A DNA stretch of 41,265 nt from a phage. The notes beneath the pieces are model-generated. The model did no database searches. It was given only the letters and a program-made list of their open reading frames with translations, and was not told the DNA's origin. Position numbers and translations under genes: made by a program. Of the stretch, positions 1 to 41,265 are shown one piece after another (positions within the stretch are counted from its first letter, which is position 1; the number at the start of each line of letters is the position of its first letter). The stretch lies in the sequence record NC_107013.1. One strand, written 5' to 3'.

Positions 1-127
1 GCGTGAAATCGCGGGCCTGGGCTTCATTATCGCTGTTCTCTGGATGCCTATCTATTCCCGCCTCTCCGGTATCGTCGCCGGAGAATACATCGCACGTCGA
101 GGAGGCCCGGATGAATGAATTATTCTG
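1..127. repeat. Terminal direct repeat: 1-127 is identical to 41139-41265 (wrap-around of a circular or terminally redundant genome); carries the 3' end of holin 1 and the start of holin 2
   Basis: Exact identity of the first 127 nt with the last 127 nt, read directly. Confidence 0.9.
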
Positions 128-383
128 GTTCGGCGGTATGCTGGCAATTGGGGGCACATCGCTGTTTAATGTATATCATCCCAGCGTGGACGACGGGCTA
201 TTTGGCCGGGTGCTCTATATCCTGACTGCTATAGTCTGCGCCGCCGGATGTATCCACCTGTTACAGGGCAGCATGTCACCGACGCTGCCTGAGACATTAA
301 TCACATTAGTCGCGCTGCGTCAGATTCGTCAGGCGTGGCTATCGTACGGAGGGCACAAGCGTGTCTCGAAACATTTCAGATAA
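111..383 (+). CDS. Holin-like small membrane protein (2 predicted TM segments, basic C-terminus); possible second holin or antiholin
   Basis: ATG at 111 overlaps the upstream holin stop (ATGAATGA); hydrophobic stretches LFWFGGMLAIGGTSLF and VLYILTAIVCAAGCIHLL; immediately precedes the endolysin. Confidence 0.6.
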   Translation: MNELFWFGGMLAIGGTSLFNVYHPSVDDGLFGRVLYILTAIVCAAGCIHLLQGSMSPTLPETLITLVALRQIRQAWLSYGGHKRVSKHFR

Positions 384-849
384 TGGATTGCATTTTACCG
401 CTGCATTTGAGGGATTCCGCGGAACTGCGTATCGTGCTACGCCGAACGAGAAGTACCTGACTATTGGCTATGGTCACTATGGGCCGGACGTAACACCCGG
501 CAAGACCATCACCCCCGGACAAGGCCTCCTGTTACTGAATCGCGATATGGCTAAGGCCGTAGCTGCGGTCGATGCAGCAGCACACCATTCGCTGACACAG
601 GCACAGTTCGACGCTGTGTGCGACTTGGTCTATAACGCAGGTGCTGGTGTGATAGCAGCTACTACCGGAACCGGTAAGGCGCTGCGTTCGGGTGATATTA
701 CGACGCTGCGGGCTAAGCTGGCGCTGTTCATCAACCAGAACGGCAAACCGTTACTTGGCCTGCGTCGCCGTACCGCAGGACGTCTGGCATTGTTCGACGG
801 TAAACCGTGGCAGGAGGCTGAGGCAATCGGGCGTGCGGTGAAAGGTTGA
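361..849 (+). CDS. Endolysin, T4-lysozyme-like (GH24) muramidase
   Basis: GTG start with GGAGGG RBS 8 nt upstream; N-terminal motif FEGFRGTAY...TIGYGH typical of GH24 lysozymes; overlaps holin 2. Confidence 0.8.
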   Translation: MSRNISDNGLHFTAAFEGFRGTAYRATPNEKYLTIGYGHYGPDVTPGKTITPGQGLLLLNRDMAKAVAAVDAAAHHSLTQAQFDAVCDLVYNAGAGVIAATTGTGKALRSGDITTLRAKLALFINQNGKPLLGLRRRTAGRLALFDGKPWQEAEAIGRAVKG

Positions 850-2612: not shown

Positions 2613-2706
2613 GTACATCCTGCCCAATCACCTTATATAATCCCTTTAGACGCGTAGGGCGCGTCTGATGCGCTCTGATGGTCAGACGCATATGCAAGGG
2701 GATTCT

Positions 2707-3252
2707 ATGAAGCTGAAACTCAAGCAGCCATCGCCAGAGGTGGTGCAAGCTGCACATGAAGAAGCTGTTAGTGCAAACCGCCGTCGTAAACGACCGCGCG
2801 GTAAACAGAGCCTTTATCAATCATCCAGTAATTCCGCCGCGCTGTGGGACCCGGATTATTGCGACGCGCTAATCGAGTTCTTCGACCGCACGTCGTGGGA
2901 ACTCGTGCCTACGTCTAAGGGTGACGAACGCCCGCTGATTCAGGATAAACCCCCGTCACTGGCCCGCTTCGCCCTGCACATCGGCGTCACTATCCCGATT
3001 ATTAAGCTGTGGTTGCGCGAGATTCCCGCATTTGCGGAAGCCTGGGAGACGGCGCAGGCACTGGAAGAGGCCTATTTCACTGAGACAGGGGCTGCTGGTA
3101 TTTCTGCTACGTTTGCTGCCGCGAAGCTGGGCCTCAGCAAAGAGAAACCGGTTGAGTCCACAGAAGAAACAGCACCGACTGAGATTATTTTTAGTGTTGC
3201 AGAGCCTGTAGGTAAAATTGTAACAACGAATATGGGTGAGGTAGAGGAATGA
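2707..3252 (+). CDS. terS: Terminase small subunit (putative)
   Basis: AAGGGG RBS before ATG 2707; basic N-terminus; directly upstream of and overlapping the large terminase; HTH-like segment. Confidence 0.55.
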   Translation: MKLKLKQPSPEVVQAAHEEAVSANRRRKRPRGKQSLYQSSSNSAALWDPDYCDALIEFFDRTSWELVPTSKGDERPLIQDKPPSLARFALHIGVTIPIIKLWLREIPAFAEAWETAQALEEAYFTETGAAGISATFAAAKLGLSKEKPVESTEETAPTEIIFSVAEPVGKIVTTNMGEVEE

Positions 3253-4499
3253 GTATTCAGCTATCCGCACCGCAGGCACTGTTCCTGAATTGCGATAACA
3301 AATACAAAGCCTATGTCGGCGGCTTCGGCAGCGGAAAGACATTTGTTGGCTGCCTTGACCTGCTTACGTTTATGCTCAAGCATCCAGGTACGCGCCTGGG
3401 TTACTTCGGCCCGACATACCCGGCTATCCGTGACATCTTCTACCCGACATTTGAGGAAGCCGCTAACCTGCTCGGCCTCGATGTGCTGGTTAAATCTGGC
3501 GACAAAGAAGTCGTGGTTACTCGCGGTAAGACGGTGCTCGGTACAGTTATCTGCCGTTCTATGGATAACCCAGGCTCGATAGTCGGCTTCAAAATCGCTG
3601 CTGCGGTCGTGGATGAGCTTGATGTATTGAGCCGTGAGAAAGCTGAGCTGGCGTGGAACAAAATAGTCGCCCGTATGCGTCTGGTTATCCCCGGCGTAAC
3701 TAACCACATCTCTGTCACCACGACACCGGAAGGGTTCAAGTTCGTCTACGCCAAGTTCAAAGAGAACCCGACGCCGAGTTACTCGATGGTGCAGGCTTCT
3801 ACACACGAGAACGCGCGATTCCTGCCGCCTGACTACATTAGCTCACTGACCGAGACTTACCCCGCGCAACTGATTAACGCGTACCTGAACGGTGAGTTCG
3901 TTAACCTGACATCCGGCAGCGTGTATTATGCGTATGACCGTCGCAAGCACCGCAGCAAAGAGACAATTCAACCGGGCGATACACTGTACATCGGGCAGGA
4001 CTTCAACGTTACGAAGAACGCCAGCGCCGTGTATGTGCAACGTAAAGACGGCTGGCACGCGGTGGCAGAACTGAAAGGTCTGTTTGATACGCCGGACACC
4101 GTGCGTGTAATTACTGAGAAGTGGAAGTCGCAGGGCCACCGCATAGTCGTTTACCCGGACGCCAGCGGCAAGAACCGCAAGACCAACTCGGCGTCAATCT
4201 CAGATATTGCGTTACTCCAGCAGGCCGGTTTCGATGTTCGCGCTAAATCCGCCAACCCTCCGGTTAAAGACCGTGTTTTAGCCGTGAATACCGCACTGGA
4301 AAAAGGTAAGCTGTGGGTTAATGACCACTTATGCCCTGAGATAGCGAAGACGCTGGAGCAGCAGGCATACGATGATAACGGAGAGCCAGCTAAAGACGGC
4401 ATCATTGACCATATGGCGGATGCTCTCGGCTATCCTGTAGTTTACGAGATGCCGGTGGTTAAACCAGTAATCAACATCCCGGTGACTTTCGCACTTTAA
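3249..4499 (+). CDS. terL: Terminase large subunit
   Basis: Walker A-like VGGFGSGKT near N-terminus; 416 aa; followed by portal. Confidence 0.8.
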   Translation: MSIQLSAPQALFLNCDNKYKAYVGGFGSGKTFVGCLDLLTFMLKHPGTRLGYFGPTYPAIRDIFYPTFEEAANLLGLDVLVKSGDKEVVVTRGKTVLGTVICRSMDNPGSIVGFKIAAAVVDELDVLSREKAELAWNKIVARMRLVIPGVTNHISVTTTPEGFKFVYAKFKENPTPSYSMVQASTHENARFLPPDYISSLTETYPAQLINAYLNGEFVNLTSGSVYYAYDRRKHRSKETIQPGDTLYIGQDFNVTKNASAVYVQRKDGWHAVAELKGLFDTPDTVRVITEKWKSQGHRIVVYPDASGKNRKTNSASISDIALLQQAGFDVRAKSANPPVKDRVLAVNTALEKGKLWVNDHLCPEIAKTLEQQAYDDNGEPAKDGIIDHMADALGYPVVYEMPVVKPVINIPVTFAL

Positions 4500-4510
4500 G
4501 AGGACAACAA

Positions 4511-6004
4511 ATGGTTTCCGCAAACATTAACGCAGGGCAAGGGCAGAACGTTAAAACCCGCCACCGCCAGTACGAAGAGTATTTCCCTAAGTGGCAGAAG
4601 GTGCGACATGCGCTTTCTGGCGACCTGACATCGTATCTACGTGACGTCAGTAAGAACGAGCCGGACCCGGTTTACGGTCGCCAGCGTCAGGCTGAATACG
4701 AAGCGGGGGCAATTTGCTACAACTTCACCAAGCGAACGCTTTCAGGCATGGTCGGCAGCGTAATGCGCAAAGACCCCGAGATGATTATTCCGTCTCAGAT
4801 GGAATACCTGACCACTAACTGTGACGGGTCGGGCGTTGGCCTGTGGCAGCACGCACAGGATACTCTGTATGAGATTGATGCTGTTGGTCGCGGTGGCTTG
4901 CTGGTTGACGCCCCCGCGGTAGAAGTAGCTACCATGGCAGAGCAAAACGAGGGTTTACTAAACCCAACAATCGCTTTCTACACCGCAGAGAATATCATCA
5001 ACTGGCGTCTCCAGCGCGTCGGGTCTGTTAATCGTGTGGTTATGGTTGTATTGCGTGAGGAATACGAGTACACCGATGGCGCGGATGAGTTCAGCCCCAA
5101 CTACGGCGAGCAATACCGCGTCCTTGATATTTTCGAAGGCCAGTATCGCCAGCGTCTGTACCGCTTTAACCAGAAAGGTGCACTGATGGAAGGTGGCTAT
5201 ATCGAAATATTCCCGAAACTCGGTAATATTCCGGTCGGGGTGATTCCGTTCACGTTCATCGGCGCGGGAAATAACGACTCAACCCCTGACGATGCACCTT
5301 TGCTGCCGTTGGCTGAACTTAATATTGGGCACTTCCGCAACAGCGCGGACAATGAGGAGTCCAGCTTCGTCGTAGGCCAGCCTACTCTGTTCATCGCCCC
5401 CGGTGAGAACATGAGCATGGGACAATGGAAAGAAGCCAACCCTCACGGAGTGCGTATGGGGTCACGTTCTGGCCATAACATCGGTTACGGCGGCAATGCG
5501 TTTCTGGTCCAGGCCGGTGAGAACAACCTAGCCAAGCAGAACATGTTGGATAAAGAGAACCAGGCAATCCAGATTGGTGCACAGCTTATTACCCCGACGC
5601 AGCAAATCACCGCGGAATCGGCACGCCTGCAACGCGGCGCTGATACGTCCGTTATGGCAACAATCGCACGTAACGTAAGCATGGCGTATACCGATGCGTT
5701 GCGCTGGGTCGCGGGTATGCTTGGGATTAGCGACAGCACTGAAATTGAGTTCAAACTGAACATGGAGTTCTTCCTGCAACCAATGACCGCTCAGGACCGC
5801 GCGCAGTGGATGGCGGATATTAACGCGGGCCTGTTACCGGCTACCGCTTACTATGCTGCGTTGCGTAAGGCGGGGGTAACTGACTGGACAGACGAGGACA
5901 TTCAGAACGCTATCGAGGATGCGCCTCTGCCATTAGGTGCTGTTGCTCAGGTGGCTGGGGAGATTCCGCAGTCGGCGCAGCAAAAAGACCCCACCCAGCA
6001 GTAA
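4511..6004 (+). CDS. Portal protein
   Basis: 497-aa ORF directly after the large terminase with strong RBS. Confidence 0.75.
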   Translation: MVSANINAGQGQNVKTRHRQYEEYFPKWQKVRHALSGDLTSYLRDVSKNEPDPVYGRQRQAEYEAGAICYNFTKRTLSGMVGSVMRKDPEMIIPSQMEYLTTNCDGSGVGLWQHAQDTLYEIDAVGRGGLLVDAPAVEVATMAEQNEGLLNPTIAFYTAENIINWRLQRVGSVNRVVMVVLREEYEYTDGADEFSPNYGEQYRVLDIFEGQYRQRLYRFNQKGALMEGGYIEIFPKLGNIPVGVIPFTFIGAGNNDSTPDDAPLLPLAELNIGHFRNSADNEESSFVVGQPTLFIAPGENMSMGQWKEANPHGVRMGSRSGHNIGYGGNAFLVQAGENNLAKQNMLDKENQAIQIGAQLITPTQQITAESARLQRGADTSVMATIARNVSMAYTDALRWVAGMLGISDSTEIEFKLNMEFFLQPMTAQDRAQWMADINAGLLPATAYYAALRKAGVTDWTDEDIQNAIEDAPLPLGAVAQVAGEIPQSAQQKDPTQQ

Positions 6005-6036: not shown

Positions 6037-6073
6037 TAGTATGCTATTAACTTTAGCGCCACAGGGTTTATCT

Positions 6074-7117
6074 ATGAGCTTACTTACATCACTAATCAGC
6101 CACCAAATATGGCTGCAACGCACCGCATCCGGTGAGGTGAAAGACCTCGCGCCGTTCATTAAGGAGATGCGGGACGAAATCAAACGGCAGGTGCTGCTAT
6201 TCGGCGACGACGGTCGCAGCACTGCGCGACTGAATAAACTGTTACGTGACCTTGAAGAAGTACTGACAGGACTTACTGGTGACTGGCAAACAAAGCTGGC
6301 AGAAGACCTCAAGGAACTGGCGGTGTATGAAGCTGAGTGGAACGTAAAGACCCTGACCGCCAACGTAGATGCGGAATTTGTTACGCCCACCGCCGAACAG
6401 GTGTGGGCCGCTGCTGAGTTTCAGCCATTATCATTGAGTGGCAAGCCAGTTGATTTCACTAAACTGATGTCAGGTTGGGGTGAAACGGAAGTAGCACGTC
6501 TTGTAACCGGCGTTAAGATGGGCTTTGTACAAGGTCAAACAACACGGCAGATTGTTAAGAATGTAGTAGGCGCCGGTGGGCTGGCTGACATCTCTGAGCG
6601 TAACGCCGCTACCGTCATCCGCACCGCGCTGTCTCACGTGTCCAACGAAGCCCGTAACGAGACGTACCGCCAGAACGACGACATCATAGAGAAGTACGAG
6701 TGGGTGTCAACGCTTGACAGCCGCACCAGTACGATTTGCAGGGTCAGAGACGGGATGACGTGGGAAATTGGTAAGGGGCCGATGCCCCCTGCCCATCCGA
6801 ACTGCCGGTCGTGCACGGCTCCGGTAATCAGTTCCGAGTTCGACTTCCTCGATAAAGGCGCAAAACGCGCGGCTAAAGGCGCGGAAGGTGGCACTCAGGT
6901 AAGCGTAGACACCACTTACTACGAGTTCCTTAAACAACAACCGGCGTGGTTTCAGGACCAGGCGCTCGGCCCGGTGCGAGGTAAGATTTTCCGTAACAGC
7001 GGTATATCGCCGGAAGAGTTTCGCGTAATATCTGTAGATGGTTTCGGGAATCCGCTCACGCTTAAGCAGATGGCGGAACTCGATAAACGTGTTGCTGATT
7101 ATCTGAAAGGGGATTAA
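6074..7117 (+). CDS. Head morphogenesis / minor capsid protein (SPP1 gp7 / Mu F-like); start ambiguous (6041 or 6074)
   Basis: Position after portal and size. Confidence 0.6.
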   Translation: MSLLTSLISHQIWLQRTASGEVKDLAPFIKEMRDEIKRQVLLFGDDGRSTARLNKLLRDLEEVLTGLTGDWQTKLAEDLKELAVYEAEWNVKTLTANVDAEFVTPTAEQVWAAAEFQPLSLSGKPVDFTKLMSGWGETEVARLVTGVKMGFVQGQTTRQIVKNVVGAGGLADISERNAATVIRTALSHVSNEARNETYRQNDDIIEKYEWVSTLDSRTSTICRVRDGMTWEIGKGPMPPAHPNCRSCTAPVISSEFDFLDKGAKRAAKGAEGGTQVSVDTTYYEFLKQQPAWFQDQALGPVRGKIFRNSGISPEEFRVISVDGFGNPLTLKQMAELDKRVADYLKGD

Positions 7118-7578
7118 TGATGGGCTTTTTCAAAGTAACTGATGTACCGTCACGTCGCGTAGTCCAGTACGCCCGCGTGTCTGGCTCTGGTGAGAACGTG
7201 GTGTTTATTGATGATGAAAGTGTACTCGGTACACCCGAAGACGATATGCCGTTTGCAGATAAAACCGGTATTGCGTTACCCGCGGCGGGCATGCTTTATG
7301 AAATTCCGTATCTGGCGGATGCAGGTGACGTGTATTTCTCGGTGCAACCGAAAGACACCGAGCTGGTCGACGGTAGCGCCACCATCACCGTCGAAGTTAA
7401 GGCGGGTAAAGCGCCGTGTGTACTGACCTGGTACAAAGACGGCAAGGAAGTGGTAAACGCCCCAGAAGAGGCTTTGTCTCTGACGGTTAATGCTGTCGGT
7501 GAATACTTCGTTAAAGTCACCGATGCCGATGGGGTAGAGGCCGTAAGTAAAGCAGCGAAGGTTACTAAGCCAGAATAA
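7117..7578 (+). CDS. Virion-associated protein with Ig-like C-terminal domain (putative)
   Basis: TAATG coupling to upstream gene; beta-rich C-terminal segment. Confidence 0.4.
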   Translation: MMGFFKVTDVPSRRVVQYARVSGSGENVVFIDDESVLGTPEDDMPFADKTGIALPAAGMLYEIPYLADAGDVYFSVQPKDTELVDGSATITVEVKAGKAPCVLTWYKDGKEVVNAPEEALSLTVNAVGEYFVKVTDADGVEAVSKAAKVTKPE

Positions 7579-7583
7579 ACTGA

Positions 7584-7604
7584 AGCCCCGAAAGGGGCTT
7601 TTTA
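7584..7604 (+). terminator. Rho-independent terminator
   Basis: AGCCCC-GAAA-GGGGCT hairpin followed by TTTTT. Confidence 0.65.
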
Positions 7605-7667
7605 GTGCCTGTGATTATTCCAGTTATTCCACTCAATTGTAAATGTTGGAATAAACTATTCGAATAG

Positions 7668-7696
7668 TTGACTTTTCACCAAAAATGTGCTAAGCT
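7668..7696 (+). promoter_or_regulatory. Sigma70-like promoter TTGACT-N17-TAAGCT (TG-extended -10), copy 1; overlapped upstream by the 16-bp palindrome AACTATTCGAATAGTT
   Basis: Same -35, -10 and spacer length as the promoter at 38053-38081. Confidence 0.55.
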
Positions 7697-7699
7697 CCA

Positions 7700-7810
7700 C
7701 CTGAGCTTGTGAAGTATGAACAAGCGACCGCGGCGCGGGCAGGTAACGGAGCGGGACGTAAGTCCTGAGTGTAGTTACGCTGACGCGTTCGGAAGGGCCA
7801 TACTCTATTG
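7700..7810 (+). ncRNA. Conserved promoter-proximal element, copy 1 (candidate small RNA or cis-acting leader)
   Basis: 5' 34 nt identical and 3' ~33 nt nearly identical to 38085-38197; conserved GCUUGU/ACAAGC hairpin; no conserved reading frame. Confidence 0.4.
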
Positions 7811-7875
7811 CTTGTGTAAAAAGTAACTGGTTTACTGAGATTACGCCGTTTCTATGTTTAAATGATAAGGACTAG

Positions 7876-7905
7876 CGCCCCGCTTTAAGGCGGGGCTTTA
7901 CTTAT
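7876..7905 (+). terminator. Intrinsic terminator/attenuator downstream of element copy 1
   Basis: GCCCCGC-TTTAAG-GCGGGGC hairpin then TTTACTTAT. Confidence 0.45.
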
Positions 7906-7920
7906 CGAGAAAGGGGAAAC

Positions 7921-8307
7921 ATGAATCTTAAAGCAACTGTCGTAGCGGGAGCATGTTTCATCATCCTGGCTTACGCACACGGCATCTACCAGTATCGCAG
8001 CGGCTGGAACGGAGGCCGGGCGAATCTCGTTTCTCAGCAACAGCAGAAAGCACAGGCTGAGTTAGCTAAGAAAACACAACGGCAGCAGCAGGATGAATCG
8101 AAGGCCGCCGCCGCTGATAACGAAGGCAAGACGAAATCAGAGGTAATCACCCGTGAAGTCGTTAAGTACATTAAAACGCCTGGCCGCAGCGTGTGCACTT
8201 TTGACCCTGAGCGCGTGCAGCTCAAGTCCCGCGCCGTCGCAAACGCCAATTCCATCCCCGGATACGACGATGATGCAGCCGCCGTGCAAACTGGCACTGC
8301 CAAGTAA
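7921..8307 (+). CDS. i-spanin (Rz-like): N-terminal TM, Gln/Ala/Lys-rich predicted helix, periplasmic Cys
   Basis: GAAAGGGG RBS; TM VVAGACFIILAYAHGIY; Rz-like architecture; contains an overlapped lipoprotein gene. Confidence 0.6.
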   Translation: MNLKATVVAGACFIILAYAHGIYQYRSGWNGGRANLVSQQQQKAQAELAKKTQRQQQDESKAAAADNEGKTKSEVITREVVKYIKTPGRSVCTFDPERVQLKSRAVANANSIPGYDDDAAAVQTGTAK

Positions 8308-8416
8308 CGACGCGGACGAGGATTTAGCTATTGACGTCCAGAACGCAGAATGTGTACGGCAACTGAGACTTAAAGTGTTCATGTTGCAGGATTACGTGAG
8401 GAATATTCTGGAATAG
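8153..8416 (+). CDS. o-spanin (Rz1-like) outer-membrane lipoprotein, overlapped with the i-spanin in the +1 frame
   Basis: GTG start with AGAGG RBS; signal peptide with lipobox LTLSAC; proline-rich mature part. Confidence 0.55.
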   Translation: MKSLSTLKRLAAACALLTLSACSSSPAPSQTPIPSPDTTMMQPPCKLALPSNDADEDLAIDVQNAECVRQLRLKVFMLQDYVRNILE

Positions 8417-8427
8417 TTGCCTTGTAT

Positions 8428-8473
8428 GTTGGAATAATTTATTCTTGACATGTAAATCCGGGTGGCCCGGATT
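8428..8473 (+). promoter_or_regulatory. Regulatory region: palindrome GAATAATTTATTC, -35-like TTGACA, then perfect inverted repeat AATCCGGG-TGG-CCCGGATT
   Basis: Inverted repeats read directly; no good -10 at the expected spacing. Confidence 0.3.
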
Positions 8474-8495
8474 CCAACGTCCAGGGGACATACTG

Positions 8496-9122
8496 ATGAG
8501 CGAAGAAGTGAAAGACGAAACTATCGAACAACAAGAGACTAAGACCACGTTTACCAAAGAAGAAGTTGACGCGCTGGTATCCGGTCTTAAAGCTAACAAC
8601 GAGAAGCTCTTGTCTGAAAAGAAAGCTGCTGCCGCTGCTGCGAAAGAAGCCGCAGATGCGAAGCTGAAAGCCGAACAGGAACGCGCAAAACAGAACGGCG
8701 AACTTGAGGCATTCGAGAAAACGTTGCGCAGTCAGTATGAGCCAGTACTCGCCGAGAAAGACGGTAAGATTAGCAAAATGGCTGAGCGTATCCTCGGCGC
8801 AGAACGTAAATCAGTTATCAGCCAGTTGTCTGGCATGTTGATTGATGAGAGCGCAGCGGATATTATCGCTATGATGGTCAAGACCGAATTTGACGGCGAT
8901 GACGTTGTGACCAAGTTCACAGGTGCAGATGGTAATGTCATCACCACCGACGCAGAGCAATTTAAAAAGTATCTGCGTGAGCACAAAGCATTTTCGCATC
9001 TGATTAAAGCAGATGCAGCAACCGGCGGCGGGGCTTCCGGTAACAAAAATTCTACTGGCGGGGCCGGTGGTGCGGACGTAATCCAGCAAAAACTTAACGC
9101 CAAATACGGCAAACGAGGATAA
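8496..9122 (+). CDS. Scaffolding protein (putative)
   Basis: Acidic, Ala/Lys/Glu-rich ORF directly upstream of the major capsid gene. Confidence 0.55.
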   Translation: MSEEVKDETIEQQETKTTFTKEEVDALVSGLKANNEKLLSEKKAAAAAAKEAADAKLKAEQERAKQNGELEAFEKTLRSQYEPVLAEKDGKISKMAERILGAERKSVISQLSGMLIDESAADIIAMMVKTEFDGDDVVTKFTGADGNVITTDAEQFKKYLREHKAFSHLIKADAATGGGASGNKNSTGGAGGADVIQQKLNAKYGKRG

Positions 9123-9128
9123 CAGAAT

Positions 9129-10097
9129 ATGTCTCTGTCAGATATGAAGGTTTATAACGACGATATCGTCGGTACCACTATCGAACTGCTTGGTCAGAAA
9201 ACTGACCAGTTTAACGCAGCCTCCGGTGGCGCAATTGTACTGTCTACCGCTTCATGGCGCGGTGACTTCTCCCGTGAGTCTTTCTTTAACCAGATTGCCT
9301 CCGCTAAACGCCGCGTTGACCGTTACGCCGCTATCGCGTCTCAGGCAGCTACCGCGCTGACTCAGGGCGAGCGTGTAGGCGTTAAAGTCGCTGGCGGCTT
9401 CGGACCGGTACTGTTCGAGCCTGCGCAAATGACCTGGCTGAACGAAGACCCGGCGAGCGCGATTCGTGCTATCTCCGAAGGGTTCTCTGACGCACTGTTA
9501 GCTGACCAGCTTAACACCGCTGTTGGTGCCGCCGTTGCCGCGGTATCAGGTCAGACTGCACTGGTTAACGATGTATCCGCGACCGCTGGCTTGTCCCTGA
9601 ACGTGCTGAACAACAGCCACGCTAAATTCGGCGACCAGTCTCAGTTGTTGGTCACTGACATCATGACCGGTGCTGCTTATCACACGCTGGTAGATAAAGC
9701 GCTGACTAACGCGAACCAGCTGTTCGTTGCCGGTAACGTTATGGTTGTCGATGTTCTCGGCAAGCGTTACGTAATCTCTGACATTCCTGCGCTGTACGAG
9801 GCCGGTACTCCGAACAAGACTAAGGTTCTGTCCGTAGTTGCGAACGGCATCATCGTTGATAATGCTTCTGACATTATCAGCAACATTGACACCAGCAACG
9901 GTAACACCCGCATCCAGACCACCTGGCAGGCGGACTACAGCTTCGGCCTGAAACTGAAAGGCTACAGCTGGGACGTTACCAACGGCGGTAAATCTCCGCT
10001 GGACGCAGAACTGTTCACCGCGACTAACTGGGACAAAGCTGTTGCCGAGAACAAGCACACCCTCGGTACTCTGGCAATCGCCGACGCAGACCTGTAA
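9129..10097 (+). CDS. Major capsid protein
   Basis: 322-aa ORF after scaffold, followed by a strong terminator. Confidence 0.7.
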   Translation: MSLSDMKVYNDDIVGTTIELLGQKTDQFNAASGGAIVLSTASWRGDFSRESFFNQIASAKRRVDRYAAIASQAATALTQGERVGVKVAGGFGPVLFEPAQMTWLNEDPASAIRAISEGFSDALLADQLNTAVGAAVAAVSGQTALVNDVSATAGLSLNVLNNSHAKFGDQSQLLVTDIMTGAAYHTLVDKALTNANQLFVAGNVMVVDVLGKRYVISDIPALYEAGTPNKTKVLSVVANGIIVDNASDIISNIDTSNGNTRIQTTWQADYSFGLKLKGYSWDVTNGGKSPLDAELFTATNWDKAVAENKHTLGTLAIADADL

Positions 10098-12716: not shown

Positions 12717-13883
12717 ATGGCTACAACTCCTTTTAAGGGCGCGAATACTGCGCAATTCTATGTGGCAGAAACTACCCCCGGCGTAACACCGACTAACCCG
12801 GTCTGGTCGCCATTGCGTAACACAGGTGGCGTTCCTGCCATTACCCGCGACACGCTGACCTCCAACGAACTGGACGGCAGCCGTGAAACTACGTCAATCC
12901 GCACCGGTAACAAGCAGGTTAGCGGAGAATACGCTATTGAGCTTAGCTCGAAAAGCCAGGACGACTGGCTGGCGGGTGCTTTAGGCTCTACATGGCAATC
13001 CGGTAGTTCTCTGACCGGGCTATCAATTACCGTCGCGCCTGCAGGCAAGACCTTTACCCGTGCCGAAGGTAGCTTTATTTCTGACGGCGTTGAAGTGGGC
13101 GACCTGATTGCGTTTACCGACTTAACCGGTGACAACGCAAAACCGTTTATCGTAACTGCAGTAGAGGCGCTGGTAGTGACCGGGGCGGGTATCCAGCATA
13201 CCCTGACCACAGAGACAGTAACTACCGCCGCTAAGACAGGGGATAAACTGGAAACGGGAAGCCAGTGCAAGACGTTCTCTATTCTCACCTGGTACAAAGG
13301 CCAGTGCGGCGGGACTGACGCGTACACACTAACCAAAGGCGTGGAAGTTTCTGGTTTTACCATCGAACAGGCTGTTAACGCTATGGTAACTGGCAGCTTC
13401 CCGTTCATCGGTCGCAGTCAGGAGATTCTCACCACGCAGCCGTCTGGTTCTGATTTCTCCTCTGTTACGTTTGGTGACGAGCCATTCTCCTCGGTCGATG
13501 TTTCTGTGTTCGACGGTTCTACGCCGTTGCGTTGCGACAGCCTGACCATCACCAACGACAACAGCGCGTCCGCACAGTTCGAACTCGGCAACACTAACGT
13601 AGCGTTTGTGGAGCGTAGCCGAGCAGCTAACACCTTCTCCATCTCCGGTAAGCTGTACGACATGGCGATGATTCAGAAGTTTATCAACGAGCAGCAGGTG
13701 GAGATTAACTCTATTCTGGCTGGGGTAAACGGGGCTATGTCTTTCAGTTTGAAACGTGCAGAACTTACGGCGGTTACACCTGAGATTGGAGGACCTGAGT
13801 CAATCACTCAGTCTATTGAAGGTCAGGCTACTGGCAACCAGTACCAGTCGTCTATTGTTATTCAGCGTATCACATACGCATAA
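12717..13883 (+). CDS. Major tail protein (putative)
   Basis: AGAGG RBS before ATG 12717; Thr/Ser/Gly-rich 389-aa ORF at the expected position. Confidence 0.55.
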   Translation: MATTPFKGANTAQFYVAETTPGVTPTNPVWSPLRNTGGVPAITRDTLTSNELDGSRETTSIRTGNKQVSGEYAIELSSKSQDDWLAGALGSTWQSGSSLTGLSITVAPAGKTFTRAEGSFISDGVEVGDLIAFTDLTGDNAKPFIVTAVEALVVTGAGIQHTLTTETVTTAAKTGDKLETGSQCKTFSILTWYKGQCGGTDAYTLTKGVEVSGFTIEQAVNAMVTGSFPFIGRSQEILTTQPSGSDFSSVTFGDEPFSSVDVSVFDGSTPLRCDSLTITNDNSASAQFELGNTNVAFVERSRAANTFSISGKLYDMAMIQKFINEQQVEINSILAGVNGAMSFSLKRAELTAVTPEIGGPESITQSIEGQATGNQYQSSIVIQRITYA

Positions 13884-13887
13884 AACT

Positions 13888-13912
13888 AAGGCCCCGTTTG
13901 GGGCCTTTTTCT
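13888..13912. terminator. Bidirectional terminator at a convergent junction
   Basis: GGCCCC-GTTT-GGGGCC hairpin flanked by A-run upstream and T-run downstream; near-identical to 26459-26484. Confidence 0.65.
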
Positions 13913-23500: not shown

Positions 23501-26455
23501 ATGTCAAGCGGATGCGGTGACGTTTTAAGCCTGGCGGATTTACAAACCGCCAAGAAACATCAGATTTTCGAGGCCGAGGTTATCACTGGCAAATCCGGCG
23601 GTGTCGCCGGTGGTGCCGATATTGATTACGCGACAAATCAGGTTACTGGACAGACGCAGAAGACACTCCCCGCCGTGTTGCGTGACGCAGGTTTTAAACT
23701 GGCAGATTTTGATTTCACGTCAGGCGGTACACTATCCGCTAACGACCGAAACACCGCAGTTTTGTGGCCGTCGTCCTCTGGCGGTGACGGGGATTGGTAC
23801 TATTGGTTGGGTGCTCTACCAAAAATTATCCCAGCGTCATCTTCTCCGCAGTCCACCGGTGGCGTGGCAGATGGGGCGTGGCAGCCTGTCGGGTCGGTCA
23901 TACTGCGGCAGCAAATATCTGATGTAAACGGCGCAATTCTGTACCCAGATTTACATGTGGCGCGATGGAAGGACGAATACGACCCGCGCGCATGGGGCGC
24001 CGTGGGCGACGGCGTAACTGATGATACTCAATCTATTTTTAATGTATTAGCAGCTTCCCCCAACAATTGGATTATAGACGGCAGGGGTTTGACTTATAAA
24101 GTTTCCCAATTACCTGACATTAGTAAATTTAAGAATGCTGCATTCGTTTACGAGCGCGTAGCCGGGCAACCGCTTACTTATGTAGCTGATGGCTTCTTTA
24201 ACGGCTCACTAACTAAGGTGACGGATACCCCGTTCTACAACGCATGGACGCAGGATAAAACTTTCGTCTACGACCATGTTATTTACGCCCCGTTTATGGC
24301 GGGCGAACGACATGGTGTTCAAAACTTACATGTAGCTTGGGTTCGCTCTGGAGACGACGGGCAGACTTGGTCAATGCCTGAGTGGTTGACTCCAATCCAT
24401 GCTGACTATAATGCTAGTGTTTCTACGGACAGAGTTAACTACCACTGCATGAGCATGGGTACGTGCGGCAACCGATTATATGCAGTTATAGAAACCCGCT
24501 ACTTATCTAATATGCGGATGAAGAAGGCAGAACTTTGGTCACGCCCAATGCCGTATTTTAGACACCCAACCGGCGGAATAACTATTAGTTCTGGCTCCAC
24601 TACTGCTACCATTGTCATAGAAAATCATGGCCTAAAAGCAGGAGATGCGGTTAACTTCTCTAATACATCGGCAACTGGCGTATCGGGTAATATGACGGTT
24701 TCGTCTATAATTAACCGAAATACGTTCACTGTTACGCTCTCAAGACCGGCGAGTTCCACCATAAACAATGCGGGTGTTACCTGGAACTTCGCAACGCGAT
24801 TCTGGGACAGCCCGTGGGAAATTACCGAATTGCCTGGGGTAGCATACTCCACTAACGCTGATTTGTGTGTCACGGAGACACATAGTTTTGCGGTTATAGA
24901 TGATGTTAACTACACTATCGCTGTCGGCTATCACAACGGCGATGTGTCCCCTAGGCGTCTCGGTGTCTTGTATTTTAGTAACGTGTATGACAATCCTGGC
25001 GTATTCGTTCGTCGCACTGTCGCTCAGGCATACGCTGATAACGCTTCTGAGCCGTGCGTGAAAAGCTATGGTGGTGTGTTATACCTTACCACACGCGGCA
25101 CATTACCTACTTCCCCTGGCTCTACACTGGCGATGAGCACCGATTCTGGGCAAAACTGGAGCTACTTGCGATTTCCGAACAATGTACATCACTCCAATCT
25201 TCCGTTCGCTAAAGTAGGTGACTATCTCTACATCTTTGGTACAGAACGTGCCTTTGGTGAGTGGGAAGGTGGCGAGCAGGACAGCCGCTATGAAGGTTCG
25301 TATCCGAGGACCTTTATGTGCAAAGTTAATGTGTCGTCATGGCCTTCATCTTTAGATGATGTTCAGTGGTTTAATATTACCGACCAAATATACCAGGGTC
25401 ATATCGTTAACTCTGCTGTCGGCGTCGGCTCGGTCTGTGTTAAAGATGGCTGGTTGTACTATATCTTTGGTGGGGAAGACTTCTTCTCTCCCTGGAGCAT
25501 AGGGGATAACAGTGCGAAGTTATGGTACAAACATGATGGGCATCCGGCTGACTTATATAGCTACCGGATAAAGATTGAAGACCACCCGTACGTATCACGT
25601 GATTTCAAATACGGAGCAACTCCTAACCGTACAATACCTGTCGCCATGGGGGTAGATGGTGTACGCCATGTAGAAGCACCTTTAACGTTTGACAATGATG
25701 TAAGCGTGTACTCCCTGCATGTAACGGGGCTGGAATACGATGGTACACAACAGTCTGCCGTGCGCGCACGGTTTGATGGTGATTACGGGCTGATTTCAAA
25801 AACAGTCCCCACTAAAACCCCATCGAGTCAAAGACTGATAGTTAGCGGTGGTGATGGTGCATCCAGTTCCGATGGTGCGTTGCTGCAACTGTACGGGGCA
25901 AACCATGCAAAGCCTAACATGGCTATTATGTATGCGTCAGGAGGCTTCTACTCATACAACAATTTTCTTCCTTACTTAGACTCGCAAGTGTCTTTAGGTT
26001 CGGCAGGTAATAGGTGGACTACGGTGTACGCGACCACCGGTACGATAAACACGTCTGATGGTACACTTAAGACGAACAAAGAGGAAATTGAGGGACAACT
26101 CCTTACCGCATGGGAGGATATACATGTAATATCTTTTAAGTGGCTTGAAAGCCTAGCAATCAAGGGTGACACTGCAAGGATACACTTCGGTGTGATAGCC
26201 CAAGATGTGCGAGACATCTTGGTCAACCATGGGCTTATGGAGAAAGATTCTACCGATTGTAAATATGCTTTCTTGTGCTACGACTCAATTGAAGCTGCGT
26301 ATGATATTGATGAAGATGGCCAGACTGTACAAGTATCCCCTCCCGGCGGCAGATGGGGGGTTAGGGCGGACCAGATGTTCTTCATAGAGATTGCCTATCA
26401 GCGTAAGAAGATGCGCGAGTTCGAGAAGAGGCTGGCAGCACTAGAAGATAAATAA
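23501..26455 (+). CDS. Tailspike: endo-N-acetylneuraminidase (endosialidase)-like with C-terminal intramolecular chaperone (peptidase S74) domain
   Basis: Two Asp-box motifs (SGDDGQTW, STDSGQNW); many segments matching my recollection of K1F endosialidase; C-terminal TSDGTLKTNK and ARIHFGVIAQ typical of S74 domains. Confidence 0.8.
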   Translation: MSSGCGDVLSLADLQTAKKHQIFEAEVITGKSGGVAGGADIDYATNQVTGQTQKTLPAVLRDAGFKLADFDFTSGGTLSANDRNTAVLWPSSSGGDGDWYYWLGALPKIIPASSSPQSTGGVADGAWQPVGSVILRQQISDVNGAILYPDLHVARWKDEYDPRAWGAVGDGVTDDTQSIFNVLAASPNNWIIDGRGLTYKVSQLPDISKFKNAAFVYERVAGQPLTYVADGFFNGSLTKVTDTPFYNAWTQDKTFVYDHVIYAPFMAGERHGVQNLHVAWVRSGDDGQTWSMPEWLTPIHADYNASVSTDRVNYHCMSMGTCGNRLYAVIETRYLSNMRMKKAELWSRPMPYFRHPTGGITISSGSTTATIVIENHGLKAGDAVNFSNTSATGVSGNMTVSSIINRNTFTVTLSRPASSTINNAGVTWNFATRFWDSPWEITELPGVAYSTNADLCVTETHSFAVIDDVNYTIAVGYHNGDVSPRRLGVLYFSNVYDNPGVFVRRTVAQAYADNASEPCVKSYGGVLYLTTRGTLPTSPGSTLAMSTDSGQNWSYLRFPNNVHHSNLPFAKVGDYLYIFGTERAFGEWEGGEQDSRYEGSYPRTFMCKVNVSSWPSSLDDVQWFNITDQIYQGHIVNSAVGVGSVCVKDGWLYYIFGGEDFFSPWSIGDNSAKLWYKHDGHPADLYSYRIKIEDHPYVSRDFKYGATPNRTIPVAMGVDGVRHVEAPLTFDNDVSVYSLHVTGLEYDGTQQSAVRARFDGDYGLISKTVPTKTPSSQRLIVSGGDGASSSDGALLQLYGANHAKPNMAIMYASGGFYSYNNFLPYLDSQVSLGSAGNRWTTVYATTGTINTSDGTLKTNKEEIEGQLLTAWEDIHVISFKWLESLAIKGDTARIHFGVIAQDVRDILVNHGLMEKDSTDCKYAFLCYDSIEAAYDIDEDGQTVQVSPPGGRWGVRADQMFFIEIAYQRKKMREFEKRLAALEDK

Positions 26456-26458
26456 AAC

Positions 26459-26484
26459 TAAGGCCCCAAACGGGGCCTTTTCTC
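26459..26484. terminator. Bidirectional terminator at a convergent junction
   Basis: AGGCCCC-AAAC-GGGGCCT hairpin; same stem as 13888-13912 with complementary loop. Confidence 0.65.
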
Positions 26485-29077: not shown

Positions 29078-29362
29078 CTAACTATAATAGCTAGCTATTA
29101 GGTCGTCAACCTGTTTAAACGAACCAACGACAAAAACATTTGCACCGCGTTTACGCATACGCTCATGCTCTCGTAACTGGTGCGGGTCAGGCTTCGTGTT
29201 TTCGTCTTTCTTAACCTCGATAAACCAGACGATGCCGCCGGGGAGAATTACCAGTAGGTCTGGAGCGCCGGAACGCCCCTCATAAGACAGTTTACGAACG
29301 AGGCCGCCAATGGCCTCGAATCGCTCTTTCGCGTATTTCTGAATCTTGCCTTCCGGGGTCAT
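29078..29362 (-). CDS. VRR-NUC domain nuclease (PD-(D/E)xK)
   Basis: Motif PDLLVI...IEVK; ATG at 29362. Confidence 0.6.
   Translation of the reverse strand: MTPEGKIQKYAKERFEAIGGLVRKLSYEGRSGAPDLLVILPGGIVWFIEVKKDENTKPDPHQLREHERMRKRGANVFVVGSFKQVDDLIASYYS
29081..29109 (-). promoter_or_regulatory. Class I early promoter TTGACG-N17-TATAGT with palindromic operator AATAGCTAGCTATT in the spacer
   Basis: About 20-bp shared core with promoters at 32635-32663 and 34772-34801. Confidence 0.5.
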
Positions 29363-32581: not shown

Positions 32582-32634
32582 CGTGATTTCTCGCTTTTCA
32601 GTTTACTCCGGGAACTGCCCGGCCAGTGATTAGA

Positions 32635-32663
32635 ACTATAATAGCTAACTATTCAGGTGTCAA
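32635..32663 (-). promoter_or_regulatory. Class I early promoter TTGACA-N17-TATAGT with AATAG-N4-CTATT operator
   Basis: Core AACTATAATAGCTAACTATT identical to 34772-34791. Confidence 0.5.
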
Positions 32664-32667
32664 CACT

Positions 32668-34740: not shown

Positions 34741-34771
34741 TTGTTTCTCTCCTCTCGTTTGGTATATGCTA

Positions 34772-34801
34772 ACTATAATAGCTAACTATTCATGTTGTCA
34801 A
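34772..34801 (-). promoter_or_regulatory. Class I early promoter with AATAG-N4-CTATT operator (18-bp spacer variant)
   Basis: Core AACTATAATAGCTAACTATT identical to 32636-32655. Confidence 0.5.
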
Positions 34802-38052: not shown

Positions 38053-38081
38053 TTGACTTTTACTGAGAAATATGGTAAGCT
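38053..38081 (+). promoter_or_regulatory. Sigma70-like promoter TTGACT-N17-TAAGCT (TG-extended -10), copy 2
   Basis: Same -35/-10/spacer as 7668-7696. Confidence 0.55.
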
Positions 38082-38084
38082 CGT

Positions 38085-38197
38085 CCTGAGCTTGTGAAGT
38101 ATGAACAAGCGACCGCGGTGCGCGGCAGGCGAAACGAGCACGTCTCGACGTGTGGAGTGAGTCTCGCTGACGCATTCGGAAGGGCCATAGTCTATTG
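38085..38197 (+). ncRNA. Conserved promoter-proximal element, copy 2 (candidate small RNA or cis-acting leader)
   Basis: Paralogue of 7700-7810 with identical 5' 34 nt and conserved 3' block. Confidence 0.4.
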
Positions 38198-38268
38198 TAA
38201 TTCCCGCCTAAATATCTAAGTTACTGATTTGCCGTGGGTTATATCCGCAAGCTCACTCACTCACTCTT

Positions 38269-40947: not shown

Positions 40948-41256
40948 TTGGATAAATTTACTGAAACAGTGACAGGCTGGCTTCTCGCTGCCGCACTAGC
41001 CGGAGGGGTCATCGGCCTACGACAACATAAGTCCGTTATTTCTGGCCCTATCGACGGCTTTTGCTTCATTGCAACTGGCTTCACTTGCGCCGTATTTGGT
41101 GCGCCTCTCGCGGCTCAATGGTTCGGTATTACCGGTGAGCGTGAAATCGCGGGCCTGGGCTTCATTATCGCTGTTCTCTGGATGCCTATCTATTCCCGCC
41201 TCTCCGGTATCGTCGCCGGAGAATACATCGCACGTCGAGGAGGCCCGGATGAATGA
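40948..41256 (+). CDS. Holin (about 3 predicted TM segments), TTG start
   Basis: GGAGG RBS 7 nt before TTG; three hydrophobic segments; immediately upstream of holin 2 and endolysin across the wrap-around. Confidence 0.6.
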   Translation: MDKFTETVTGWLLAAALAGGVIGLRQHKSVISGPIDGFCFIATGFTCAVFGAPLAAQWFGITGEREIAGLGFIIAVLWMPIYSRLSGIVAGEYIARRGGPDE

Positions 41257-41265
41257 ATTATTCTG

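Follow-up and report, generated by a model that had tools for sequence, protein, structure and literature searches.

Two overlapping genes lie on the plus strand at positions 7921 to 8416 of the window, by which we mean the whole stretch of phage DNA that was analysed (NC_107013.1, 41,265 nt). The outer gene (7921..8307) starts with ATG and encodes a protein of 128 aa, the putative i-spanin. The inner gene (8153..8416) starts with GTG in the +1 frame and encodes a protein of 87 aa, the putative o-spanin. The two genes share 155 nt, 8153..8307 on the plus strand, which are read in two frames and specify residues 78-128 of the i-spanin and residues 1-52 of the o-spanin. In the inner frame this overlap zone encodes the o-spanin signal peptide and a disordered linker. 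The ORF list places the end of the o-spanin ORF 109 nt beyond the i-spanin stop codon, in agreement with the original prediction.

The inner frame is closed upstream by a TAA at 8144-8146, two codons before the GTG at 8153, so that this GTG is the earliest possible o-spanin start; it is also the sole start codon that leaves the protein with a signal peptide. Reading of the sequence placed a Shine-Dalgarno-like AGAGGT (8139..8144, plus strand) 8 nt before the GTG, and (A/G)GAGG is kept there in 38 of 47 relatives (34 with GAGAGG and 4 with CGGAGG). The ATG of the outer gene at 7921 has AAAGGGG ahead of it, and the Shine-Dalgarno-like AGAAAGGGG (7908..7916, plus strand) before this start is the ribosome-binding site given in Table S1 of Kongari et al. 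(2018; PMC6139136). In GC content the pair does not stand out and gives no sign of foreign origin.

The original prediction took the product of 7921..8307 for a type II membrane protein with a transmembrane segment and a helix, and both were recovered. Residues 5-23 form the only hydrophobic stretch (mean Kyte-Doolittle value 1.72 over 19 residues), and an AlphaFold model contains an unbroken helix from residue 3 to residue 69 (pLDDT 71-90), giving a single N-terminal transmembrane domain followed by a largely helical periplasmic part. The C-terminal half, beyond residue 69, was modelled at low confidence (pLDDT below 50), from a shallow input alignment of sequences of at least 87% identity. 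The periplasmic domain is Gln-rich, with a polyQ-rich helix, and contains the single Cys outside the membrane stretch, C92, which is invariant among relatives. Positive charges flank the membrane helix and do not alone fix its orientation; by analogy with characterised spanins, we infer that the N-terminus is inside and the C-terminus outside.

The N-terminus might instead be read as a Sec signal peptide cleaved after A-Y-A at 17-19, before H20, which would release a soluble periplasmic protein, and the pair could then not bridge two membranes as Rz/Rz1 does. The short n-region (MNLK), the moderate hydrophobicity of the core and the AXA-like motif are compatible with such cleavage. However, the motif is not conserved, relatives having LWLYG, VFAYG or LTYGYG, and the modelled helix runs through the site without interruption. 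A published spanin census, moreover, scored the K1H i-spanin as TMD TRUE, with a periplasmic domain from Q24 and a coiled coil at 33-66 (PMC6139136). Cleavage is therefore very improbable, and we regard the N-terminus as a membrane anchor.

The inner ORF has the properties of the proline-rich, GTG-initiated lipoprotein that had been proposed in the +1 frame. The PROSITE lipoprotein pattern PS51257 is matched at residues 12-22, with a lipobox LTLSA/C22 at the end of a 21-aa lipoprotein signal; the residue at +2 of this signal peptidase II site is Ser rather than Asp. The predicted mature protein has 66 aa, eight of the first 30 being Pro, and consists of a disordered Pro-rich tether and a charged amphipathic C-terminal helix. 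A single-sequence model shows residues 15-52 as disordered and a confident helix at 53-86 (pLDDT 84-94). Two further Cys residues, Cys45 and Cys67, are both invariant, so that each of the two proteins has periplasmic Cys from which disulfides are predicted. A unimolecular spanin of the T1 gp11 type was considered for the inner ORF and rejected, its only hydrophobic stretch being the signal peptide.

Earlier records and genomic setting of the pair

Over the 901 nt from 7700 to 8600 the window is 99.6% identical to Escherichia phage K1H (Kagunavirus, Guernseyvirinae). The i-spanin and o-spanin are 100% identical at the protein level to K1H ORF5 and ORF6, and the 496 nt of the pair differ from K1H at four nucleotides, all synonymous. 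In GenBank (GU196278) the K1H pair is labelled ‘putative spanin’ and in RefSeq (NC_027994) ‘Rz-like spanin’, with coordinates 4838..5224 and 5070..5333 in both. PHROGs searches assigned the i-spanin to phrog_2536 (E=1e-56) and the o-spanin to phrog_5672 (E=7e-30) and phrog_1267 (E=6e-20), all labelled ‘Rz-like spanin’. By tblastn, 666 phage records had a match to the i-spanin and 664 to the o-spanin, with co-occurrence in about 665; most are from Salmonella phages (Jerseyvirus) or Escherichia phages (Kagunavirus, Dhillonvirus), and i-spanin/o-spanin annotations are numerous among them. A large protein search gave close relatives only, among the matches listed.

The K1H pair was placed in the overlapped ‘Jersey’ family in the spanin census of Kongari et al. 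(2018; BMC Bioinformatics 19:326, PMC6139136), and both proteins of the window are similar over their full length to the i-spanins and o-spanins of that family. Jersey is the largest overlapped family of the census, with 27 members that include K1G, K1H and K1ind1-3 as well as phages Jersey and SETP3 (PMC6139136). The description given there is of i-spanins with two helices, two polyQ stretches and a linker that contains beta structure, and of o-spanins whose C-terminal helix is conserved and whose Cys45 and Cys67 are constant, with an overlap of 155 bp; ‘separated’ variants (FSL_SP-031) have the C-terminal part of the o-spanin alone in common (PMC6139136). The census tables enter the K1H pair as ‘ovl’, at 4837..5224 and 5069..5333 with an overlap of 155, and give the same i-spanin sequence and an o-spanin of class OOS with 87 aa, 66 of them mature (PMC6139136).

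The window begins and ends with an exact 127-bp duplication (1-127 = 41139-41265). It is thus a complete genome of 41,138 bp in circularly permuted form, and the lysis cassette spans the window junction: a first holin lies at 40948..41256, a second holin or antiholin at 108..383 and an endolysin of the soluble lysozyme type at 361..849, all on the plus strand. The two holins and the endolysin make up a holin-endolysin system, and the close relative K1H, a phage of E. coli K1, places this phage among those of Gram-negative hosts. An ORF at 3..383 (from 41141 in the duplicated end), read in the frame of the second holin, has a lipobox-pattern extension, MKSRAWASLSLFSGC/LSIPASP…, which overlaps the first holin gene at its 3′ end. 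Its interpretation as a lipoprotein-extended holin was rejected because, of nine distinct relatives, five have stop codons within the extension, and this lipobox is therefore a chance alternate-frame feature. A scan of lipobox ORFs, together with comparison of relatives, revealed no other conserved lipoprotein or spanin candidate in the genome.

The i-spanin start lies 7,071 nt from the endolysin stop, as expected from the predicted distance of about 7 kb to the holin-endolysin cassette. Packaging genes do stand between them, TerS at 2668..3252, TerL at 3249..4499 and the portal gene at 4511..6004, and eight small ORFs lie between the endolysin and TerS. These are followed by genes for a head-morphogenesis protein (6041..7117) and a Hoc-like decoration protein (7117..7578), while the scaffold (8496..9122) and major capsid protein (9129..10097) genes lie downstream of the pair. 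The pair had been thought to sit between the head-morphogenesis and scaffold genes. This was right on the scaffold side, whereas its immediate upstream neighbour is the Hoc-like gene and not 6041..7117. All 46 loci with sufficient flanking sequence have the same order, Hoc-like gene, spanins, scaffold.

Several other features of the surroundings were recorded. Mosaic junctions flank the spanin module at 7579-7667 and 8417-8495 of the window (loci L003-L049); among relatives the spacer from the Hoc-like gene to the RNA element described below varies by about 600 nt, and the scaffold that starts directly after the o-spanin stop occurs as two alleles (about 100% and about 67% identical). A terminator-like GC-rich hairpin after the Hoc-like gene (7583..7600) belongs to a three-copy family, AAGGCCCC-loop-GGGGCCTT with T runs, whose members at 7574-7603, 13880-13909 and 26452-26481 stand at the ends of gene blocks. 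An AT-rich, partly palindromic repeat of 25-31 nt, AACTATAATAGCTAACTATT…, occurs at 29080-29110, 32634-32664 and 34771-34795 in the minus-strand gene block; two of the three copies are intergenic, and the repeats may serve that block as promoters or operators. No tRNA or tmRNA gene is present.

The pair does lie far from the holin-endolysin cassette, but such a location has been described before and is not exceptional. In T4, the textbook example, the spanin genes are likewise unlinked to those for holin and endolysin (PMC6139136), and the genome announcement of the related phage Schulenberg notes spanins apart from the holin and endolysin (PMC6763661). Since the K1H annotation, the spanin census and the Schulenberg announcement between them cover all elements of the finding, its distant location included, the pair is not novel. 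The pair is therefore of little weight as a discovery, and its practical value is for annotation. In many phage records one or both spanin genes are labelled ‘hypothetical protein’. The phrog_5672 profile, of 47 positions, spans only residues 41-87 of the o-spanin (8270-8416 of the window), which suggests that in many database entries the gene was called from an internal ATG-ATG and so lost the signal peptide. The o-spanin being often missed or begun at an internal ATG, the locus offers a clean example of how an o-spanin is to be called. Engineering of Kagunaviruses into small chassis for synthetic biology would likewise have to allow for lysis genes in two places and for 155 nt that are read in two frames.

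Coding capacity of the two frames

We compared 48 related loci, with i-spanin identities from 63% to 100%; 47 of them contain the full region, in 45 distinct sequences. Both the i-spanin and the o-spanin frames are open in all 47. A GTG or ATG stands at the position of the o-spanin start in 38 of the 47, the remainder being served by the same GTG position, and the lipobox Cys is present in all relatives. Among the 45 distinct sequences, polymorphic sites in the zone that encodes the i-spanin alone number 40, 28 and 61 at positions 1, 2 and 3 of the i-spanin frame, respectively.

The alternative that the inner ORF is an untranslated chance frame, with the 128-aa protein as sole product, has to be weighed here. 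ORFs with a lipobox pattern do arise by chance: there are nine in the window, as compared with 3.4 ± 1.7 in shuffled sequence. Many records, furthermore, omit the inner ORF or start it internally, and within the overlap zone variation tracks the i-spanin frame, the o-spanin frame being weakly constrained there. The last of these observations would also fit a translated inner frame, because the o-spanin signal peptide and disordered tether that are encoded in the overlap tolerate change; the structured helix is encoded outside it. The 35 inner-frame codons beyond the outer stop vary mostly at their third positions (13, 6 and 27 polymorphic sites at positions 1, 2 and 3 of the o-spanin frame among the 45 distinct sequences, p = 6e-4). 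The 35 residues concerned, the last of the o-spanin, are 80-86% identical in divergent phages where the DNA is 69-72% identical; in the same phages the i-spanin membrane segment is 33-46% identical. The frame is open throughout the relatives, as noted above, and the lipobox survives both a shift of register and, in locus L038, replacement of the whole signal peptide. The probability that the inner frame is a chance one is thus very small. A lipobox-pattern ORF alone is weak evidence, whereas the comparative evidence for the inner frame is strong: to judge by the distribution of polymorphism, comparison of the 45 distinct relatives shows both frames to be maintained as protein-coding, with an o-spanin gene overlapping the i-spanin gene on the same strand.

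The lipobox moves by one residue among close relatives (LTLSAC/SSS versus TMLASC/SS) and is still a lipobox. Where it shifts (8195-8225 of the window, and in loci L016-L032), FDPERVQL in the i-spanin frame is replaced by FDDARVLL. The register shift thus couples changes in both frames and leaves a lipobox in place. In L038 (positions 1501-2086) the pair is nearly separated, with an i-spanin of 118 aa and an overlap of about 14 nt; the signal peptide and linker of its o-spanin are unrelated to those of the window and its lipobox is ITGC, while the C-terminal domain is unchanged. This arrangement matches the FSL_SP-031 type of Kongari et al. (2018; PMC6139136).

A candidate leader RNA upstream of the pair

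The original prediction placed the pair directly downstream of the first copy of a conserved element, and a repeat is indeed found there: 7668-7810 recurs at 38053-38197. Each copy begins with a promoter-like TTGACT-17 nt-TAAGCT with a TGn (extended -10), at 7668..7696 on the plus strand for the first copy; it is kept in both copies and scores below the threshold of a consensus scan. The sequence that follows is a structured element of about 120 nt, delimited by a covariance model at 7697..7816 (copy 1) and 38082-38203 (copy 2), both on the plus strand. Copy 2 is at the head of the operon that runs rightward towards the lysis cassette. About 70 nt past each copy, a GC hairpin is followed by a weak U tract; the hairpin after copy 1 (7877..7896, plus strand) has 8 bp and a weak T tract and separates the leader from the ribosome-binding site of the i-spanin gene. 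Two short ORFs within the element are not conserved, a 2-nt indel between the copies shifting their frame, which rules out a conserved ORF.

Kagunavirus-like viral contigs contained the element motif in 42 stretches, with two copies in a typical genome. RNAalifold, applied to 18 distinct sequences, gave 28 base pairs, five of them with compensatory double changes. The covariance model had exactly two matches in the window, and in Salmonella Jersey-like loci (L039-L048, at about 1302-1407; E 1e-7 to 1e-10) it also recovered a single copy, some 95 nt ahead of the i-spanin gene. In the alignment fitted to the model, 97% of cells pair, as against 33-44% when the partners were slid, nine pairs change on both sides, and the observed covariation score was reached by none of 500 shuffles; because a model-fitted alignment leans towards structure, we consider this test supportive and not conclusive. 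Rfam gave nothing credible within 7500-8550, and no description of the element was found in the searchable literature. It resembles a leader RNA or an sRNA.

One idea, by analogy, is that the leader RNA may be a put-like cis antiterminator. The promoter-like site at 7668, the structured leader, the spanins, the scaffold and the major capsid protein would form one transcription unit, in which the spanins appear to be the first cistrons. As such they would accumulate with the structural proteins, harmlessly, since spanins are inert until endolysin acts. That the spanins are the first cistrons of a late unit controlled by the leader RNA, perhaps through antitermination like that of HK022 put, is a speculative proposal that we consider unlikely. 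Were it correct, the spanins would be more than lysis genes out of place, and supply of the outer-membrane disruptor would be set by the morphogenesis programme via RNA-mediated read-through, a regulatory link not described for spanins. The leader RNA is not part of the spanin finding, yet it is the less ordinary feature of the locus.

Predicted lysis function and relation to characterised spanins

Assessed by the two-component spanin criteria of Summer (2007) and Kongari et al. (2018), the pair has every sequence-level feature of an overlapped spanin, the architecture that had been proposed for it, and PHROGs, GenBank/RefSeq and the census (PMC6139136) concur. The description as ‘Rz/Rz1-like’ holds for architecture and presumed function; it does not extend to sequence, where homology to lambda Rz/Rz1 or T4 PseT.3/PseT.2 is undetectable. 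A Pfam search with either protein gave no match to the lambda-type Rz or Rz1 families at E≤1. Against the lambda proteins hhalign returned probabilities of 0.3% (Rz) and 12.6% (Rz1), the Rz1 alignment being limited to the lipobox and a Pro-rich ‘MQPP’ stretch. Against those of T4 it returned 0.7% (PseT.3) and 3.6% (PseT.2), aligned over the transmembrane or signal segment only. Neither protein had a match above the curated cut-offs in Pfam and NCBIfam; P2 LysC (NCBIfam NF038368, P2_Rz1; 13.7 bits, cut-off 27) and DUF2514 (PF10721; 15.7 bits, cut-off 26) were rejected on this ground. Profile searches against PDB sequences gave no relative of known structure for either spanin.

The undetected homology to experimentally characterised spanins, together with a literature search that found no experiment on the Jersey-type family, leaves room for a different role, in which the pair would be envelope proteins unconnected with lysis, for example a lipoprotein that excludes superinfecting phages or masks a receptor, as T5 Llp or Cor does, together with a membrane partner. 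Such a role would account for the absence of the pair from the lysis cassette and for its position within the head-gene cluster. As set out above, however, unlinked spanins are on record for T4 and for a related phage, and spanins are defined by just this pairing of a type II membrane protein with an overlapped lipoprotein gene. Both genes occur together in hundreds of phage records, with periplasmic Cys invariant in both products, and the genome holds no other spanin candidate though its holin-endolysin system is canonical. We consider an envelope role outside lysis improbable. None of the three alternatives, namely cleavage of the i-spanin, a chance inner frame and an envelope role, has positive support beyond the absence of experiments.

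We conclude that the pair is very probably the two-component spanin of a K1H-like Kagunavirus and belongs to the overlapped Jersey family. Its architecture, the co-occurrence of the two genes and the lack of another candidate beside a canonical holin-endolysin system are the grounds on which we infer, by analogy, a lysis function for this family. In the mechanism that we propose on the model of Rz/Rz1 and PseT.3/PseT.2, the i-spanin would be anchored in the inner membrane, N-in and C-out, and the o-spanin would be lipidated and delivered through the Lol pathway to the outer membrane, in whose inner leaflet it would sit and bind the i-spanin across the periplasm. The complexes would be stabilized by intermolecular disulfides and kept inactive by the peptidoglycan mesh. 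Removal of the mesh by holin and endolysin would allow them to collapse and so to fuse the inner and outer membranes, which would clear the last barrier to release.

The pair is predicted to be a functional analogue of lambda Rz/Rz1, without detectable homology to it. As in lambda, a type II inner-membrane protein and an outer-membrane lipoprotein in the +1 frame would be made from the same DNA, and the two systems have in common the Pro-rich lipoprotein, the periplasmic Cys and the presumed role in membrane fusion. They differ in that lambda Rz1 is fully embedded in Rz, whereas the o-spanin gene here continues past the i-spanin stop. The lambda pair is the last part of its lysis cassette, whereas the Kagunavirus pair is 7 kb away. 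Lambda Rz1, moreover, has been described as unstructured (PMC6139136), whereas the o-spanin here has a long C-terminal helix. T4 PseT.3/PseT.2 are of similar size (117 and 83 aa in T4) and their genes too are unlinked to holin and endolysin; the T4 o-spanin, like that of the window, has helical content. The T4 genes, in contrast, overlap by 4 nt only and were classed as separated in the census (PMC6139136). From the K1H members of the Jersey family nothing of substance differs. The FSL_SP-031-type locus L038 has the same i-spanin core and the same o-spanin C-terminal domain, and the window represents the overlapped form of this arrangement.
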